Source of the DNA: Escherichia phage moskry | Sequence record: MN850651.1 | DNA length: 64,000 nucleotides | Strand: one strand, 5' to 3' | Notes under the pieces: generated by a model | The model's database searches: none | Told to the model about the DNA's origin: nothing | The model's input: the letters and a program-made list of their open reading frames with translations, nothing else | Position numbers and translations under genes: made by a program | Shown: one piece after another, positions 24,254 to 31,867 of the stretch | How positions within the stretch are numbered: the first letter of the stretch is position 1 | How the letters are laid out: each line of letters opens with the position of its first letter

Positions 24254-24490
24254 TTAACCACTTACTGGTGTAGGGGTAAACATTGCAGCGTTCTTAGTTT
24301 TCCAGTCAGCTGCATCAGAAACTACAGTAGAATATGCCGCCTTTTCAGAAGGAAAGGTCTGATAATGAGAATCTGCAATACGATGCTCGTTAGAATAGAT
24401 TTCAAATGGTACAGAAACTTCCATACCTTTAACTTCTTTACCTTCACCAGCAGGATGCGTAAAGGTTTTGATGTTTACATAACCACCCAT
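24254..24490 (-). CDS. soc: small outer capsid protein Soc
   Basis: 78 aa; ..GYVNIKTF.., ..HYQTFPSEKAAYSTV.. match T4 Soc from memory. Confidence 0.85.
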   Translation of the reverse strand: MGGYVNIKTFTHPAGEGKEVKGMEVSVPFEIYSNEHRIADSHYQTFPSEKAAYSTVVSDAADWKTKNAAMFTPTPVSG

Positions 24491-24492
24491 AA

Positions 24493-24813
24493 TTAACTCC
24501 TTTGTTGTTTAATTACAGGTGTATTTATAATGAATTTCTTCGGGACAATAAAATATCCGAATTTAGCTAATATAACAACATCACCGTTAATTATTACCGG
24601 AGAATAATCATCTGGAGTATTAAATTTCCAGTGGAGTCTAGTATTATATCCATCAGAGCCGAATGCTTTATTAGCCGGTCTCCCGGCTTTTTGCCATGCA
24701 TAAAAATCAAGTTTCATTTGCAACCCAATCAACCATATGTAGATTGTCTGATAATTGACTAACATGCTGAAGCTGATTAGACAGGAGCTTACAAATAAGC
24801 TCACTGTTATCAT
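24493..24813 (-). CDS. hypothetical protein with N-terminal hydrophobic segment
   Basis: ORF track 24493-24831 (TTG start in track); first ATG at 24813; weak RBS. Confidence 0.3.
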   Translation of the reverse strand: MITVSLFVSSCLISFSMLVNYQTIYIWLIGLQMKLDFYAWQKAGRPANKAFGSDGYNTRLHWKFNTPDDYSPVIINGDVVILAKFGYFIVPKKFIINTPVIKQQRS

Positions 24814-25489: not shown

Positions 25490-25687
25490 ATGTTTAAACT
25501 TCCATCGTTAATCAACGCTATTAAAGGCAATAAAAAGAAAACTGCTATCGCTGCAATAGTTGTAGGTGGCATTATTTCATGGAACTTCGGGATTGCACCA
25601 TTGTTAGTTGCCCATGGTATTATAGTTCCTTCTGTTCCATTGGATACTGTAGTTGATTTGGCCTTTGCTATTATAGGGCTTGTTTAA
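25490..25687 (+). CDS. small membrane protein (65 aa), plus strand
   Basis: Strong SD TAAGGAG 7 nt before ATG; hydrophobic (..AIAAIVVGGIISWNFGIAPLLVAHGIIV..); 3' end converges on and overlaps the primase stop. Confidence 0.5.
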   Translation: MFKLPSLINAIKGNKKKTAIAAIVVGGIISWNFGIAPLLVAHGIIVPSVPLDTVVDLAFAIIGLV

Positions 25688-26706
25688 ATCTTCGAATAAC
25701 GAGATAATCTCATTTTAGCATGCAACCCACTTGAAATATTCTGTTTCATATATTCTAAAATTTCTTGTGGTGTTGCATTTTCTTTCATTACCATATCATT
25801 CACATCCTTTGATCTCCATGGAGCTCGATCCCAGAACATGACACGTTCGCCTGCATCAACTAATCGCTTCATACGAGCTATAGTATCCGGATGCCTAGGT
25901 TCATTATCCATTACCCATACCCGACGCTCTTTAAATGGTACCACATCTAAATCTATTGAGCCGCCTGTAATAGCGATTGCATTGGGTATGAATAAACTAT
26001 CAATAGGACCTTCCATTACCCAGACGTCCCCTTCCTTAACACGTTCAACACCATAAATTTTTGTTGCAGACTCAAACGCTTTAATAGTGATATATTTCTG
26101 AGGAGCATCTTTACGAAGTGCACGTCCTTGAAATGACTCGGCCTTCCCATCTTTATTAAAAATAGGAATAACTAAACGTGGTTCGGGAATCTCTTTCTTA
26201 TACGTACCAGGTTGAATCTTGTTGACCAATTTAGGCCATTCTAATGTGAACCATAATCTGTTCCATGATTCTTTAGGAATGCATCGAGACTTAACATATT
26301 TCACAATAGGATGCTCTTCAGGCAGCTTGTCCAGACGAGAACAAGACGGCAAAGAATTTATAGTCTTTTTCTCCGGTTCTGGTTTATGTTCAGGAACCTT
26401 TTCAATCTTTGGTTCCATTCTAGCTTTTTCTTTACGAACTTCCATTAGATACTCACGATAAAGCTCTTCATCATACTCTTTTAAGTATCCGGAAATTGTA
26501 TTGTGGTATTGACAATTATAGCAATGTACATTACCAGGAGTACCGCCATAATACCATCCGCGAGCTTTCATTGCATCTGTTTGGGAGTCGCCACAAACTG
26601 GACATCGAAATGTTAATTTAAATGTGCTTGAATTATTGATTTGTCTAAAACGAGGTAGGTGAGAAAACGCACGATAAGCAAATTCATTATCTATCCATTC
26701 AGCCAT
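25684..26706 (-). CDS. 61: DNA primase gp61
   Basis: 340 aa; N-terminal zinc ribbon (CPVCGDS..CYNCQ), Toprim-like core; matches T4 gp61 in length and motifs. Confidence 0.9.
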   Translation of the reverse strand: MAEWIDNEFAYRAFSHLPRFRQINNSSTFKLTFRCPVCGDSQTDAMKARGWYYGGTPGNVHCYNCQYHNTISGYLKEYDEELYREYLMEVRKEKARMEPKIEKVPEHKPEPEKKTINSLPSCSRLDKLPEEHPIVKYVKSRCIPKESWNRLWFTLEWPKLVNKIQPGTYKKEIPEPRLVIPIFNKDGKAESFQGRALRKDAPQKYITIKAFESATKIYGVERVKEGDVWVMEGPIDSLFIPNAIAITGGSIDLDVVPFKERRVWVMDNEPRHPDTIARMKRLVDAGERVMFWDRAPWRSKDVNDMVMKENATPQEILEYMKQNISSGLHAKMRLSRYSKI

Positions 26707-26745: not shown

Positions 26746-27240
26746 TCACAACTTATTAATATTTACTTTAATTCGCTTTCTTTTCTTGGAAGGAATTTGT
26801 TCTGGACCTTTATTTACGACTGCACCTGTAGTTGTTCCTGATGCAATAGCTTGAGGACTGCCGCCTGAATCACCAGCAACCATATCCTCAAATAAAGGGA
26901 GTTCTTTAAATATTTCTTTCTGTTGTTCTTCCGTAATGTTATAGCGTGAAGCTACAGCACTCCAGGCAGACATCATTGAGGCCATTCCATTAAGACCCGG
27001 AACAGTGCTCATCATTCGCTTCATTGAACGAACTGAAGCATGAAAAGGTGTATACGCCGCTTTTTCTTCGGGAGTAGAAGGACGTTTAAGAACACTTCCA
27101 CGTTCATCGATGATTTTGGCTTCGTATGCTTTCCATTCGGTAAAAGGTTTTTGCATTAGTCGAATAAACTTATATGCATAAACAGAATCTATTGCAGTGT
27201 TAATAATACCCATAGGTACCTCCTGAGTATATTTAATCAA
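26746..27240 (-). CDS. hypothetical protein (164 aa)
   Basis: ORF track. Confidence 0.5.
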   Translation of the reverse strand: MIKYTQEVPMGIINTAIDSVYAYKFIRLMQKPFTEWKAYEAKIIDERGSVLKRPSTPEEKAAYTPFHASVRSMKRMMSTVPGLNGMASMMSAWSAVASRYNITEEQQKEIFKELPLFEDMVAGDSGGSPQAIASGTTTGAVVNKGPEQIPSKKRKRIKVNINKL

Positions 27241-27430
27241 TTACAAAGATCGCTTTGTCACCATTTATATCTGTGACTTCATATGTAGTGCCTTCATACT
27301 GTGGAATATTCCAAATTACACCATCATTAGCTTTTACGCTAATATGGCATTGGCGTTTTGAAACAACTTCATAATCTTCAAAACTTGTAAAAACACTAAT
27401 TTTAGAACCAGTGCAAATTGCAGTAGTCAT
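27233..27430 (-). CDS. hypothetical protein (65 aa)
   Basis: ORF track. Confidence 0.4.
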   Translation of the reverse strand: MTTAICTGSKISVFTSFEDYEVVSKRQCHISVKANDGVIWNIPQYEGTTYEVTDINGDKAIFVID

Positions 27431-27431
27431 T

Positions 27432-28091
27432 TTAACCTCGATTCATAAATGCATTAAATATTTGGTCATCAACAGAAATTTCTAATTCGACTTCAATTGC
27501 TTCAGCCTTTTCTTCAGGTGGTAATTCATATCCACACACTACAATTTTTTCATCGATATCAAAATATACAGAAGCAATACGATTAATGTTATTTTCAGTT
27601 AAGTCTAAATCAACATCAACATCTTTTTGACCTACACTTAAAGGATAACTAATACGGGTTATTTTATTATCTTTAACAAAGAGTCCACCAACATACTCTG
27701 TACTACGTTTGAAGTCTACACGTTTCCGAATTGAAAGATATGATACATCTTTACCGTGAGCTCGGCTCATAGGACATAATGAATAGCTAGAATAAGAGAT
27801 GTCAAATCCTACACCTTCAATATGAGCCAACGTGTCATGATTAAACCAATTATAATCATATGCCAAATCCATTATATTGTAATATGTGAAAGGCACAGGA
27901 TTAACATCATATGTTGTACCTTTAAAATCTGCCCAGGCAACGATTTCGTTATCTTTAACAATTACAAAAATTACACCAATATGATATCCGTTATTATTTT
28001 CGTTCGGCGTTATATTATAACATTGTGCATTAGGAAATTTACCATATTTAAATGGTGCGTTTTTGTGCATATAATAAATCATATTATTCAC
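27432..28091 (-). CDS. hypothetical protein (219 aa)
   Basis: ORF track; start overlaps the upstream stop. Confidence 0.5.
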   Translation of the reverse strand: MNNMIYYMHKNAPFKYGKFPNAQCYNITPNENNNGYHIGVIFVIVKDNEIVAWADFKGTTYDVNPVPFTYYNIMDLAYDYNWFNHDTLAHIEGVGFDISYSSYSLCPMSRAHGKDVSYLSIRKRVDFKRSTEYVGGLFVKDNKITRISYPLSVGQKDVDVDLDLTENNINRIASVYFDIDEKIVVCGYELPPEEKAEAIEVELEISVDDQIFNAFMNRG

Positions 28092-28377
28092 CTGTGATTT
28101 CGGTTACGATATCTTTGTTATCGAAATTAGGGTCACAATACAAAACATAATTGTACTGCATGATACCGCCGGACTTAAGTTGTTCAACAACTTTATTGAC
28201 CATATTAGGACGGTCTCGTTTAGTGATGTTCATGATATCAGAGAAGATTTGTTGTTCAACATCTTCTTGATTTGCAGTCATTGACCACTCACAGAGGTCT
28301 TTATCATAACCTGCCGTAACTGGAGCCGGTGCACATGATACTGCAAGTAAGATTGCTGCCAATGATAACTTTTTCAT
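28084..28377 (-). CDS. sp: Spackle-like periplasmic protein (lysozyme inhibitor / superinfection exclusion)
   Basis: 97 aa with signal peptide MKKLSLAAILLAVSCAPAPVTAG, then ..YDKDLCEWSMTA.., ..GGIMQYNYVLYCD..; size and features match T4 Sp as recalled. Confidence 0.6.
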   Translation of the reverse strand: MKKLSLAAILLAVSCAPAPVTAGYDKDLCEWSMTANQEDVEQQIFSDIMNITKRDRPNMVNKVVEQLKSGGIMQYNYVLYCDPNFDNKDIVTEITGE

Positions 28378-28406
28378 TTTAACTCCTTAGTTGATTTGAT
28401 AGGACT

Positions 28407-28436
28407 ACTATAACATAGTCCATCTATAATGTAAAC
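28407..28436 (-). promoter_or_regulatory. early promoter GTTTAC-N18-TATAGT
   Basis: Read directly, with dyad GGACUA/UAGUCC around the -10. Confidence 0.5.
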
Positions 28437-28440
28437 AAGT

Positions 28441-28689
28441 TTATTCTTTTTCGCGAATAATAATTACTTGTTGAGGCTGCTGAGCAGATTTCTTTTCGGC
28501 AACGATAGACCAAATTAAAGTTCCAATCCAACCAATCATCGTCCAGTTAAAGAGTAAAGATACAAAGAAGATTGCTGTTGTGCCTTTTGTGCCACGAATA
28601 AGTGCGATTACCCAAGGCAACATGTAAATGATGATTGAACCAATACCTGCGATTAAAACTGCTACTGAACTAGCCACGAATAATTCCAT
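28441..28689 (-). CDS. two-TM membrane protein, superinfection-immunity (Imm)-like
   Basis: 82 aa; ..YMLPWVIALIRGTKGTTAIFFVSLLFNWTMIGWIGTLIWSIV.. resembles the LPxxIA..R....NWT.IGW pattern of Imm-family proteins (from memory). Confidence 0.4.
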   Translation of the reverse strand: MELFVASSVAVLIAGIGSIIIYMLPWVIALIRGTKGTTAIFFVSLLFNWTMIGWIGTLIWSIVAEKKSAQQPQQVIIIREKE

Positions 28690-28750
28690 GTTAATTTCCT
28701 CTTGATTTGTTATGTTTATAGTATCTTGTTTTAACTTTGGTGTAAACCAA

Positions 28751-29119
28751 TTAATTAAATTTGTTTAAACGTTCAATACACTGGACGTAGTTATTCGCTA
28801 TTTGTTTCTGGGTAGGCTCTTTACCAGTTGTTTCAACATAGCGAATGAATGCGATTTCAGTAGCCTGTAAACAATGCTCTTTAACACGTTGTTCTTTTGA
28901 CAATGCTACAGTATCAGAGTCACGATAACGTTGAGCATGGGCATCAGCTTGAATCATTCGATTACCTACAGTAACCGGGTCTTCCACTTCAACTTTAGGT
29001 TGTTCATATTGTTTAACATTCGGATTGTAAATCAATTGGCCAACGTTATTAGGGATAAAGCCATGGGCACCACATCCGGTTAATCCAAATACCATTGCTA
29101 AAGCGATTAATTTTTTCAT
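28751..29119 (-). CDS. putative lipoprotein
   Basis: Signal peptide with lipobox (..AMVFGLTGC) at the N-terminus; 122 aa. Confidence 0.55.
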   Translation of the reverse strand: MKKLIALAMVFGLTGCGAHGFIPNNVGQLIYNPNVKQYEQPKVEVEDPVTVGNRMIQADAHAQRYRDSDTVALSKEQRVKEHCLQATEIAFIRYVETTGKEPTQKQIANNYVQCIERLNKFN

Positions 29120-29147
29120 TTCAATTTCCTCTGTAGTTGATAGAAAG

Positions 29148-29177
29148 ATAGTAACACAGTATGTGGGGCCTGTAAAC
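29148..29177 (-). promoter_or_regulatory. early promoter GTTTAC-N18-TACTAT
   Basis: Read directly. Confidence 0.5.
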
Positions 29178-29179
29178 AG

Positions 29180-29437
29180 CTATTTTAAACTTTTGCGAAA
29201 TTTGCGTTTTTCTTGACGAATCTGTCGTTTAGTCGGACGTACAGCAAATTTAACGAAGTCCACTTTGCCGTGTGGAAACTTTTCAGATGCTTCACAGTCC
29301 ATCATTAGTTCCCATCCTTCCAGAATAAGAGCTTTCCATTGTGTAGTTGATGCAAATTCGTATGTTGATGGTTTAAACACAGTTGAATACATATTATCCT
29401 CTGAAATCAGCTTCAAAAACTTTCTCGTCATTAACAA
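29180..29437 (-). CDS. hypothetical protein (85 aa; TTG start in track)
   Basis: ORF track; 5' end overlaps dmd by about 44 nt, start may be the internal Met. Confidence 0.35.
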   Translation of the reverse strand: MLMTRKFLKLISEDNMYSTVFKPSTYEFASTTQWKALILEGWELMMDCEASEKFPHGKVDFVKFAVRPTKRQIRQEKRKFRKSLK

Positions 29438-29588
29438 ATGCTTTAACTAATGCGTTGTTCACTTCAGCAAACTGCATGGTAGCCCACATGATATGCTCTT
29501 TGTCTGTTATATCCATGCGGATTTCTTTGGTAAACATACTACCATTTTCAAACCAACCAATAAAAACTACTTTAGCAAACTCTTCCAT
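29394..29588 (-). CDS. dmd: Dmd-like antitoxin (discriminator of mRNA degradation)
   Basis: 64 aa; ..KVVFIGWFENGSMFTKEI.., ..WATMQFAEVNNALVKAF.. resemble T4 Dmd as I recall it. Confidence 0.55.
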   Translation of the reverse strand: MEEFAKVVFIGWFENGSMFTKEIRMDITDKEHIMWATMQFAEVNNALVKAFVNDEKVFEADFRG

Positions 29589-29906
29589 TTAGATTTCCTC
29601 ACAGAACGCCCATTCAGCATGATAAACTGTAGCGCCTTTAGTATCATTCATTTGAACTACATCTACCGGAGAAATTACTCGATAGAGACGTGGTTCACCT
29701 CCATAAGAGCGTGCTGCTCGTCCTGCATAAATCTTTGCTAAACCGATATCTTCAGTAAAGAATACACGATCCAAGTTTTTCTTACGTCCAGTTTCAGACA
29801 GAACTCCTGTTTCCTCAGGAGGACAAAGCATGTTTTCGATGTTAGCTGAACTACTTGAACCGTGATAAAAAATCTTAAATTCTGCTTTACAATCGATGGT
29901 TTTCAT
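29589..29906 (-). CDS. hypothetical protein (105 aa)
   Basis: ORF track. Confidence 0.5.
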   Translation of the reverse strand: MKTIDCKAEFKIFYHGSSSSANIENMLCPPEETGVLSETGRKKNLDRVFFTEDIGLAKIYAGRAARSYGGEPRLYRVISPVDVVQMNDTKGATVYHAEWAFCEEI

Positions 29907-29932
29907 TTTGTTCTCCAGTAGTTGATAGGTCT

Positions 29933-29960
29933 ATAATAACACAACTACTGGAGAAGTAAA
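29933..29960 (-). promoter_or_regulatory. early promoter GTTTAC-N16/17-TATTAT
   Basis: Read directly; followed by AGACCTATCAAC. Confidence 0.5.
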
Positions 29961-29961
29961 C

Positions 29962-30336
29962 TTAAAAACGTAATTTAGATATATCTGCGTTGATTTCGTT
30001 TTGGTTCGCGTCATATGCAATTAAACGAACCGCTTTAGATGGGTCATTCAATGCATAGAAATGATGGAACATTGCTCGAACGATATCACCATTTACGAGT
30101 TCTACCTGGATAGGAGAACCTTTTTCGAGTTGGAAATGTTCATAAGCTTTGATGGTTCGTAGATAATCAAGTTTTTGATTTCCAGCTCCAACTATTTGTA
30201 CGATACGTTTGCCCATGTTTTCCATACGAGATACAATAGTTTTAGGAGCAAGAATAACGTAGGTTGCCAGCGGAGAAACTACTTCAACAGTTGTGTTTTC
30301 GGTGATTGCAGTAAAAATTGCTTGAGACATATTCAT
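29962..30336 (-). CDS. hypothetical protein (124 aa)
   Basis: ORF track. Confidence 0.5.
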   Translation of the reverse strand: MNMSQAIFTAITENTTVEVVSPLATYVILAPKTIVSRMENMGKRIVQIVGAGNQKLDYLRTIKAYEHFQLEKGSPIQVELVNGDIVRAMFHHFYALNDPSKAVRLIAYDANQNEINADISKLRF

Positions 30337-30365
30337 AATGTTTTCCTCTTGGTTAGTGTAAGTAC

Positions 30366-30395
30366 ATCATATCATGCCTAGAGGAAGATGTAAAC
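30366..30395 (-). promoter_or_regulatory. early promoter GTTTAC-N18-TATGAT
   Basis: Read directly, between the gene 41 terminator hairpin and the next gene. Confidence 0.5.
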
Positions 30396-30401
30396 CCCGA
30401 A

Positions 30402-30424
30402 AGGAGACCGAAGTCTCCTTTTTA
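30402..30424. terminator. hairpin AGGAGAC-CGAA-GUCUCCU downstream of gene 41, with U-run on the + strand
   Basis: Perfect 7-bp stem; T5 run follows on + strand; may stop antisense transcripts or stabilise the gene 41 mRNA 3' end. Confidence 0.5.
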
Positions 30425-31867
30425 TTAAAATTTTAACTCATTGGCTAAGCTATCTAGGTCAGCACGTGTTGCTTTGGCTTTACCTACGCGTTCCGTACGA
30501 TTCACCTCTGCCTGACGCATCTGAGCACCTGCGTTTTCATTTACTGTGTTAGGTGTGTTCATGCCTTCTTGCTCAATCTCAATCCATTTCTGGTTGCCTT
30601 TACGTACACCCATCAGGAATTTATTCCACTTATTCTTATCACCATATCGTGATTTGATTTGTTTGATAAGTTGTTGTTCAGCTTGTGCAAGTTCTTCGGT
30701 TTCAATTACGGCCAACATGAAATCTGCCGTTGCTGGTAAACCTGCTGATTCTGCAATATCGCTCATGTTCATGTCTGAAGCATCCCATGCTGCACGTCCT
30801 ACTTGAGCTGCAGTCCATAGAACTGTTTCAGATTCTACTGCTAATGCACGAAGTTCTTCTGCGATAGCTTTAACTAATGTGTAGCTATTTTCAGTGTAAA
30901 CTCTGATACGACAAGACCCACAAATACCTAAGTAATCAACCATGATTACAGATGGCACAAAATTCTTCTTAAGTTTTAACTCATTAAGCAATGCACGGAA
31001 TGTATTAGCATTAGCTCCACCAGTAGGATACTGTTTAACTACTAAACGTCCTAATGTAGATTTTGAACGCCATTTTTCCATCTTGGCTTTATATTCAGCA
31101 TAAGATACGTTACCATCATCGATATCATCGAGTGATACGTCAAGCATGTTTGCATCTATACGCTTAGCACAAACTTCTTCAGCCATTTCCATGGAAATAT
31201 AAAGAACATTATGACCTGTTTGAAGATAATCTGCAGCAAGTGAACAAAGGCCTAAAGATTTACCAACGTTAACACCAGCCATTAAAACATTCAGTGTACC
31301 TGTTTCTGCGCCGCCTTTGGTGATTTTATTCAGAATGTTTAATTTGAACGGGACCTTACGTGCTTTATTTAGATAAGAAAGCCAGCGTGCTTCGTAGTCT
31401 TCCATCCAGTCATGTCCAACATAACTATCAAACGAAATTGAAAGTGCTTGACGCATAATATCAGGAATAGCTCCTACATCAGGCATTTTCTTGTTACGTT
31501 GTTCTGGAGGTAGTTCAGCATTAGACTGAATCTCAATGATTTTGGATGTAGCATTATACATCGCTTTTTGCTGGACATATTTCTCAGTTTCTTTAACCAA
31601 CCATTCGTGGTCTTCAGGAGTATCAGCCAATTTTTCAATTAGGTCTGAAGTTCCTTTATATTCGGCTTCAGTTAAAGAACTGTTATCTAAAGCCACCTTT
31701 AATGCATTGATGGATGGCATTGCATTATATTCGTTAACGTGGCTCTTTATAATTTTAAAGACATTTTTTGCCGGTCCACGCTCAAAATACTCAGAATCCA
31801 TATAAGGCCAGACCTTAGAAAAATAAGCCTGGTCGTATACTAGATGAGACAAAATAATTTCTACCAC
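30425..31867 (-). CDS. 41: replicative DNA helicase gp41 (DnaB-like)
   Basis: 480 aa; near-identical to T4 gp41 as recalled (MVEIILSHL.., Walker A ..GVNVGKSLGL..). Confidence 0.95.
   Translation of the reverse strand: MVEIILSHLVYDQAYFSKVWPYMDSEYFERGPAKNVFKIIKSHVNEYNAMPSINALKVALDNSSLTEAEYKGTSDLIEKLADTPEDHEWLVKETEKYVQQKAMYNATSKIIEIQSNAELPPEQRNKKMPDVGAIPDIMRQALSISFDSYVGHDWMEDYEARWLSYLNKARKVPFKLNILNKITKGGAETGTLNVLMAGVNVGKSLGLCSLAADYLQTGHNVLYISMEMAEEVCAKRIDANMLDVSLDDIDDGNVSYAEYKAKMEKWRSKSTLGRLVVKQYPTGGANANTFRALLNELKLKKNFVPSVIMVDYLGICGSCRIRVYTENSYTLVKAIAEELRALAVESETVLWTAAQVGRAAWDASDMNMSDIAESAGLPATADFMLAVIETEELAQAEQQLIKQIKSRYGDKNKWNKFLMGVRKGNQKWIEIEQEGMNTPNTVNENAGAQMRQAEVNRTERVGKAKATRADLDSLANELKF

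Follow-up and report, generated by a model that had tools for sequence, protein, structure and literature searches.

A very probable immediate-early counter-defence and exclusion island in the gene 41–61 interval of an RB69-type T-even phage, including a conserved mini ADP-ribosyltransferase fold

The block of small genes between the helicase and primase genes of Escherichia phage moskry is, with high confidence, a plastic immediate-early island of counter-defence and superinfection-exclusion functions. It occupies positions 26746–30336 of the 64,000-nucleotide stretch of record MN850651.1 analysed here (the window, of about 37% GC), all of its genes lying on the minus strand between those for the gp61 primase (25684–26706) and the gp41 helicase (30425–31867). 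To judge by sequence the phage is an RB69-type T-even phage of the genus Mosigvirus: megablast aligns the 6.4 kb around the region over its full length, at 97.4–98.5% identity, with upwards of 150 deposited genomes, among them WFbE185, Bas47 AlbertHofmann, AV111 and mar005P1. This is a known type of island in a known lineage, and most of it is ordinary and already in the literature. Srikant et al. 2022 have termed the region a possible "anti-TA island" (TA, toxin–antitoxin) and its other genes "attractive anti-toxin candidates" (PMC9391042).

Ten minus-strand open reading frames (ORFs) fill the interval compactly, confirming the cluster of small genes between primase and helicase that an earlier, sequence-only reading had described. 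Several of the ten are short, encoding 64–70 residues, and the other frames hold many overlapping chance ORFs, so that some of the smaller ones might be taken for chance open frames rather than genes. This is extremely improbable. All ten match a PHROG family at E <= 6e-29, all possess a Shine–Dalgarno sequence with tight start–stop coupling, and all are annotated in relatives and kept across 130–800 phage genomes; PHROG matches, Shine–Dalgarno sequences and annotation together therefore identify them as real conserved genes. Exact look-up of five of the ten proteins found all five sequences already in public databases.

The transcriptional organisation of the island can be predicted from the T4 early-promoter motif GTTTAC-N17-19-TANNNT, taken as a putative promoter where it lies between genes and on the strand that encodes them. 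The window holds 22 copies where 2.8 are expected, a count matched by none of 100 shuffles, with 21 of them on the minus strand. Five fall in the region, at 30395, 29961, 29177, 28747 and 28436, each in a different intergenic gap and on the minus strand. Promoter 1 (30366–30395, GTTTACA-N17-TATGAT) would serve ORF041c, and promoter 2 (29933–29961, GTTTACT-N16-TATTAT) would serve ORF040c, dmd and tifA. The motif matches at 29148–29177, 28718–28747 and 28407–28436 form putative promoters 3, 4 and 5, serving imm.1, imm and the sp-adfA-ORF033c-61.1 series, respectively. Five immediate-early units are thus predicted for ten genes, and the proposal that each gene has an early promoter of its own does not hold: dmd, tifA, adfA, ORF033c and 61.1 have none, each of them abutting or overlapping the gene before it. 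Promoter 5 probably also serves gene 61, no further promoter motif being found between the two. Neither the late-promoter motif TATAAATA nor a MotA-box motif occurs in the region. In the proposed scheme host sigma-70 RNA polymerase would read these five promoters in the first minutes of infection, as their motif suggests, and the products would fall into four groups.

The first group would act at the cell envelope to shut out superinfecting T-even phages. Sp, or Spackle (97 residues, 28084–28377), is the predicted periplasmic inhibitor of the gp5 tail lysozyme. It matches PF25676 over the full length of the family (1e-42, 145 bits, profile positions 1–96 of 96), is identical to T4 Sp at 64 of 97 positions, and has a hydrophobic N-terminus, MKKLSLAAILLAVSCAPAPVTA, which on inspection reads as a signal peptide. 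Spackle inhibits the gp5 lysozyme of the incoming phage (PMC7677548). Imm (82 residues, 28441–28689) is a predicted inner-membrane superinfection immunity protein which would block DNA entry. It matches Imm_superinfect (PF14373; 6e-15, 55.3 bits against a cut-off of 27.9), has a grand average of hydropathy of 0.95 and is identical to T4 Imm at 53 of 83 positions across its full length. It thus appears to be a true full-length orthologue, which the description "Imm-like", though correct as to the family, understates. The lipoprotein that had been noted is Imm.1 (122 residues, 28751–29119), a predicted lipoprotein of family DUF5481 (2e-09, 38.2 bits, cut-off 27) with the lipobox FGLTGC (LTGC here, LAGC in T4). 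It is identical to RB69 Imm.1 at 121 of 122 positions and to T4 Imm.1 at 33%. A literature search on imm.1 found nothing relevant, and its product is placed provisionally with the exclusion proteins solely by conserved synteny, imm.1 being directly upstream of imm both here and in T4. In T4 the imm.1-imm pair sits between genes 42 and 43, not in the 41–61 interval.

The second group would consist of small cytoplasmic proteins that bind host toxins directly: Dmd against RnlA and LsoA, TifA against ToxN, which it would trap on RNA, and AdfA against DarT1. TifA (61.4; 70 residues, 29180–29392), a predicted RNA-binding inhibitor of the ToxN endoribonuclease, belongs to DUF7279 (5e-20, 71.6 bits, cut-off 24.5). 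Its gene adjoins dmd, the protein is identical to RB69 gp61.4 at all 70 positions, and the basic RNA-binding cluster K55, R56 and R59 is present on inspection. RB69 TifA inhibits ToxN by trapping it on RNA (PMC9391042, PMC10853763). AdfA (61.2; 27432–28082), anti-DarT factor A, lies in a 219-residue ORF and is of 216 residues when counted from the ATG that has a Shine–Dalgarno sequence. It matches PF23813 along the whole profile (8e-120, 398 bits, positions 1–211 of 211) and RB69 AdfA (gp61.2) at 209 of 212 positions. Residue 164 is Arg, as in RB69, rather than the His found in T4. AdfA binds and neutralises DarT1 only with His at this position, and the wild-type AdfA proteins of RB69, Bas46 and Bas47, all with Arg164, neither bind nor neutralise it; adfN (gene 30.3) is a second anti-DarT1 factor (PMC11257639). 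The R164 allele of the window probably targets another DarT.

Dmd (64 residues, 29394–29588) is a predicted, antitoxin-like inhibitor of RnlA/LsoA-type toxins present here as a rare allele. It matches Pfam Dmd (PF17587; 1.3e-24, 86.8 bits, cut-off 27), residues 3–64 aligning to profile positions 2–60 of 60, and phrog_2102 (5.5e-32). Dmd inhibits RnlA (PMC9391042). The protein is identical to T4 Dmd at 39 of 62 positions and to RB69 Dmd at just 43 of 64. The divergence is confined to a patch at 29440–29600, the 5' two-thirds of dmd, with some 50 differences in about 150 nucleotides from RB69, Bas47 and AV111, compared with about two per 100 nucleotides elsewhere in the region. At 94% nucleotide identity or above the allele is present in only three of 50,697 phage records (ECO26.1 3-1, Yersinia phage vB_YenM_P8 and Ec2-ASingh), the next best match being at about 79%. 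The patch looks like a localised, recent allelic replacement in a near-clonal background, and such a replacement would fit an arms race with host toxins. In one Gaprivervirus-like locus of IMG/VR dmd is immediately followed by another ORF with a weak resemblance to Dmd (E = 8e-6), which may be a tandem duplicate or a degenerate copy.

With Sp, Imm, Dmd and the lipoprotein accounted for, six ORFs remain, not the seven that the sequence-only reading had counted as uncharacterised. Sp and Dmd were rightly named (Pfam Spackle at 1e-42, Dmd at 1e-24), but the remaining six are not all uncharacterised, since two are the published AdfA (PF23813, 8e-120) and TifA (70/70 to RB69). The idea that these ORFs are candidate anti-defence factors has been borne out experimentally for 61.4 and 61.2 (PMC9391042, PMC10853763, PMC11257639). 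It may suit ORF040c and 61.1 less well, as both are conserved at 50–85% identity in Straboviridae of Escherichia, Klebsiella, Acinetobacter and Aeromonas and do not look like lineage-specific accessory genes. Nor is it new, having been put forward by Srikant et al. 2022. The comparison with the T4 61.x genes that had been recommended yields counterparts for 61.4, 61.2 and 61.1 but none for ORF041c, ORF040c and ORF033c.

The third group is formed by ORF040c (105 residues, 29589–29906), which would be co-transcribed with dmd and tifA. It has the features of an ADP-ribosyltransferase (ART) fold, of a minimal Arr-like, p0068-family type, and is identical to its RB69 counterpart at 104 of 105 positions. 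Searched alone, ORF040c gives no Pfam match at E <= 0.1, none in NCBIfam and no PDB sequence match. A homologue search among 1.84 billion representatives returned 184 relatives, many of them C-terminal or internal domains of proteins of 300–3900 residues. These contain, in addition, portal, ART-PolyVal, NUDIX, 2H/Acb1-like, Toprim or PcfJ domains, a make-up typical of injected "polyvalent" proteins. The homologous segments within the larger proteins match Pfam Arr-ms (PF12120) at 26.9–29.4 bits, against a cut-off of 25; in the PDB the family profile picks out Arr alone (E = 4e-4); the closest viral model outside the family is annotated as a rifampin ADP-ribosyl transferase; and the UniRef cluster of ORF040c is already named "ADP-ribosyl transferase". 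Among known systems ORF040c comes closest to Arr (PDB 2HW2) and to the p0068-like viral ART family of the H-Y-[EDQ] clade (Iyer et al. 2022), Arr being of about 140 residues compared with 105 here. The gene is found in 609 phage records at 64–72% identity, from Straboviridae of Escherichia, Klebsiella, Acinetobacter and Aeromonas, and is absent from T4.

Conserved in the family are [FY]-Y-H-G-[ST], P-P, E38, R41, V-F-x-T, A57, Y60-A61 and G69-G70. With respect to the H-Y-[EDQ] triad, H15-G16-[ST] does not vary, and 144 of 147 sequences have Y60. At the first aromatic position, F49, which corresponds to Arr Tyr49, 139 of 149 representatives have Phe and 9 have Tyr. E38 and R41 are near-invariant and E103 is invariant only among the close phage homologues; from conserved residues in the sequence alone the acidic catalytic residue could not be assigned. 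Both the activity of ORF040c as an ART and its target are things that we infer. A further comparison is with AcrIF11, to which ORF040c can be likened by analogy of function type, no relationship being detected at the sequence level (21% identity over 75 residues). AcrIF11 is a mobile-element ADP-ribosyltransferase that inactivates a CRISPR surveillance complex. In the records of Bas46 and Bas47 the start of the ART gene is annotated downstream, giving 80 residues and cutting the conserved Y-H-G-S; other records have 105. In some relatives among the IMG/VR loci the ART gene is followed by one for a product of 96–188 residues that looks secreted or resembles a lipoprotein, for example MKTSILALIFAMTSCSAPAFA...; the downstream neighbour of the ART is often an envelope protein and not a cytoplasmic peptide.

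Translation of ORF040c appears to be controlled by the way in which its RNA is started. A 14-bp RNA hairpin at 29911–29955 (minus strand) has the -10 box of promoter 2 within its loop and the Shine–Dalgarno sequence of ORF040c, GGAG, in its 3' arm, where it pairs with an anti-Shine–Dalgarno TCTCC in the promoter spacer. The hairpin has a folding energy of -21.5 kcal/mol (z = -5.0), and none of 200 shuffles is as stable. Read-through RNA is predicted to leave the Shine–Dalgarno sequence unpaired with a probability of 0.00, and RNA from promoter 2 with a probability of 0.75, so that the ribosome-binding site would be exposed only on RNA from the gene's own promoter. RB69 keeps the hairpin with one mismatch, and the promoter spacer of relatives retains TCTCC, or CCTC opposite GGAGG. 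The ART would accordingly be made in a short burst tied to its own promoter. The spacer of promoter 1 also holds a sequence, CUUCCUCU, complementary to the Shine–Dalgarno sequence of ORF041c; at this promoter (30337–30395) the anti-Shine–Dalgarno pairing, of CUUCCUCU with AGAGGAAA, is weaker. A general gating of this kind at all five promoters was considered and rejected, the other four promoter-proximal genes being without such a switch, which is found only at the ART. Rfam searches with both hairpins returned only sub-threshold chance matches.

The fourth group, with no function assigned, comprises ORF041c, ORF033c and 61.1. ORF041c (124 residues, 29962–30336; phrog_10668, 3e-86) is a Mosigvirus-restricted ORFan, identical to RB69ORF041c at all 124 positions. 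It occurs in 132 phage records at 95% identity or above and in two below 60%, and forms two clusters among 5.8 billion proteins, too few to align usefully; no match was found in Pfam, NCBIfam or the PDB. ORF033c (65 residues, 27233–27430; phrog_3249, 6.5e-33) is identical to RB69ORF033c at 64 of 65 positions and is present in 262 phage records, mostly of Mosigvirus, Gaprivervirus and Dhakavirus. Pfam and NCBIfam scans with ORF033c and 61.1 gave no meaningful match, PDB sequence searches with single proteins yielded either nothing or insignificant matches, and literature searches with the names and accessions of RB69ORF040c, RB69ORF041c and RB69ORF033c found nothing.

The product of 61.1 (155 residues, 26746–27213; phrog_2086, 1e-73) combines a predicted helical N-terminal domain with a conserved basic C-terminal peptide, and has homologues of 46–90% identity in phages of Escherichia, Salmonella, Serratia, Yersinia and Acinetobacter. 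Its AlphaFold2 model is poor (predicted local distance difference test score 63, predicted template modelling score 0.38), with the N-domain helical and the C-peptide predicted to be disordered. T4 gp61.1, of 54 residues, aligns only to the C-terminal 48 and consists of MKTFKEFIKE followed by the conserved peptide. This decapeptide agrees at seven of ten positions with the capsid targeting sequence of internal proteins, MKTYQEFIAE, and ends in the I-x-E motif of the prohead protease. Full-length homologues have an [LIMV]-x-E junction, with a near-invariant E109, just before the peptide; in the window the junction is PLFE, near 26887, followed by the peptide DMVAGDSGG...GTTTGAVVNKGP...KKRKR. 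Speculatively, the C-peptide may be packaged in the head and released by the protease; no literature linking 61.1 to a capsid targeting sequence, and no virion proteomics for 61.1, was found. The RB69 GenBank record splits the gene into RB69ORF032c and 61.1, while the window and at least 80 relatives have one intact 155-residue ORF, so a frameshift or an error of sequencing in the old record probably underlies the split.

Two alternative explanations concern ORF040c. A p0068-family ART toxin with a Dmd antitoxin, evidently the ORF040c-dmd pair, has been described by Iyer et al. 2022 (PMC9503650), and ORF040c presumably belongs to that family, the match being to the description in the paper, not to an accession. 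On this explanation the two genes form a phage-borne type II TA pair, and the primary partner of Dmd here is the phage's own ART. The stop codon of the ART gene abuts the dmd start (TAA-ATG) and the two would be transcribed together from promoter 2; Gaprivervirus SP18 and ten IMG/VR loci have the genes side by side in this way; a Mod-like ART takes the same place beside Dmd in some Klebsiella phages (PMC9503650); the occurrence of the domain in polyvalent effectors is consistent with a potentially toxic enzyme; and translation of the ART is predicted to be tightly gated. Across genomes, however, the pairing is not upheld. A Dmd hidden Markov model finds Dmd within 2.5 kb of only ten of 62 ART loci in IMG/VR, and ten other loci have no ORF of at least 30 residues within 150 nucleotides downstream. 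Five genera have five unrelated downstream ORFs (Dmd, a Cys-rich 46-mer, transmembrane peptides of 38 and 58 residues, and a gp30.6-like protein), while T4, T2, T6 and hundreds of Tequatrovirus records have Dmd but no ART. Furthermore, the N-terminal two-thirds of Dmd has been replaced (43/64 to RB69) with the ART almost unchanged (104/105), and there is therefore no sign of co-evolution between the two. Taken together these observations do not support an obligate TA relationship, and we regard the TA pair as improbable; the two genes seem to be neighbours in just a few enterobacterial genera. A more novel reading of ORF040c, to which we give rather less than an even chance, is that of a catalytically active and unusually small Arr-clade ART, made only in a brief immediate-early burst from its own promoter, which acts independently of Dmd on a conserved host or nucleic-acid target in takeover or counter-defence. 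ORF040c would on the same reading be the stand-alone form of a domain injected by other phages and plasmids within giant polyvalent proteins.

A different explanation, unlikely but deserving weight, is that ORF040c and 61.1 are not host-specific anti-defence factors at all but near-core functions of the Straboviridae. The ART would then modify a conserved host or phage target in takeover, and 61.1 would provide a conserved basic peptide, possibly head-internal and released by the protease, or else a replisome accessory, as the position of the gene beside that for primase might suggest. The distribution of the ART in 609 phage records and the similar breadth of 61.1 speak for such roles, as do, for 61.1, the resemblance of the T4 N-terminus to a capsid targeting sequence with its I-x-E motif and the conserved junction before a peptide predicted to be disordered. 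Indeed a conserved enzymatic or structural role would account for this broad conservation no less well than host-specific anti-defence. Against this, T4 lacks the ART and retains one third of 61.1, so neither is essential, no late promoter lies near 61.1, neither virion proteomics nor literature lends support, and the capsid targeting resemblance is a match of ten residues. Several points weigh against the counter-defence and exclusion island as a whole, which nevertheless remains the strongly favoured account. Four to five of its ten genes (ORF041c, ORF040c, ORF033c, 61.1 and Imm.1) are without a demonstrated role, and "accessory counter-defence" may be the wrong category for the broadly conserved ORF040c and 61.1. 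The functions of the exclusion and anti-toxin proteins are predictions transferred by orthology to studied T4 and RB69 proteins; Dmd, a predicted RnlA/LsoA inhibitor, is only 62–67% identical to every studied Dmd, and the R164 form of AdfA is inactive against the sole DarT1 tested (PMC11257639). The five promoters, finally, are predicted by consensus match.

Some further features of the window can be recorded. A GC-rich terminator-like hairpin lies at 30400–30421 on the minus strand, directly 3' of the gene 41 stop codon, its stem GGAGAC-UUCG-GUCUCC being followed by UUUC; it was missed by a strict terminator scan. On the plus strand a hydrophobic 65-residue ORF at 25490–25687, a homologue of RB69ORF029w and the sole annotated plus-strand gene of the neighbourhood, converges with the 3' end of gene 61. 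The late motif TATAAATA is depleted throughout the window, with two copies in 64 kb compared with seven expected, one of them at 24522–24529, just upstream of a soc-like ORF (24254–24490). Such depletion would suit a window made up of early or middle genes.

The island shows T-even phages packing several independent anti-TA answers, together with superinfection exclusion, into one early and rapidly reshuffled block, a picture already published for T4 and RB69. The value that remains lies in the conserved mini-ART, whose pairing with Dmd is not upheld across genomes, and in its gated expression. If ORF040c is indeed an active ART independent of Dmd, it adds another class of ADP-ribosyltransferase to the Alt, ModA and ModB of T-even phages, and one which is missing from T4. 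The rare dmd allele could reveal how antitoxin mimics follow host toxin variants, and ORF041c, ORF033c, 61.1 and Imm.1 provide other leads.

A number of parallels can be drawn with known systems. RB69 (AY303349) has the same ten genes in the same order and on the same strand: ORF041c, ORF040c, dmd, 61.4, imm.1, imm, sp, 61.2, ORF033c and ORF032c/61.1. The proteins are 97–100% identical except for Dmd, with just 43 of 64 residues in common, and the promoters and the ART hairpin are common to both; 61.1, split in the RB69 record, is intact in the window. The island of T4 occupies the same position between genes 41 and 61, encodes orthologous Dmd, TifA, Sp and AdfA and likewise has an early promoter upstream of dmd-tifA (PMC9391042). 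It consists of five genes (dmd, tifA, sp, adfA and 61.1) compared with ten here, being without ORF041c, the ORF040c ART and ORF033c, and its 61.1 is a 54-residue remnant. Meanwhile the TifA of the window lacks the C-terminal extension of the T4 protein, and its AdfA has R164 in place of H164. The anti-CRISPR and anti-restriction islands of other phages likewise cluster unrelated small early genes, each directed against a different host system. Unlike them, the island described here mixes cytoplasmic anti-toxin functions with exclusion at the envelope, and does so inside a block of replication genes.

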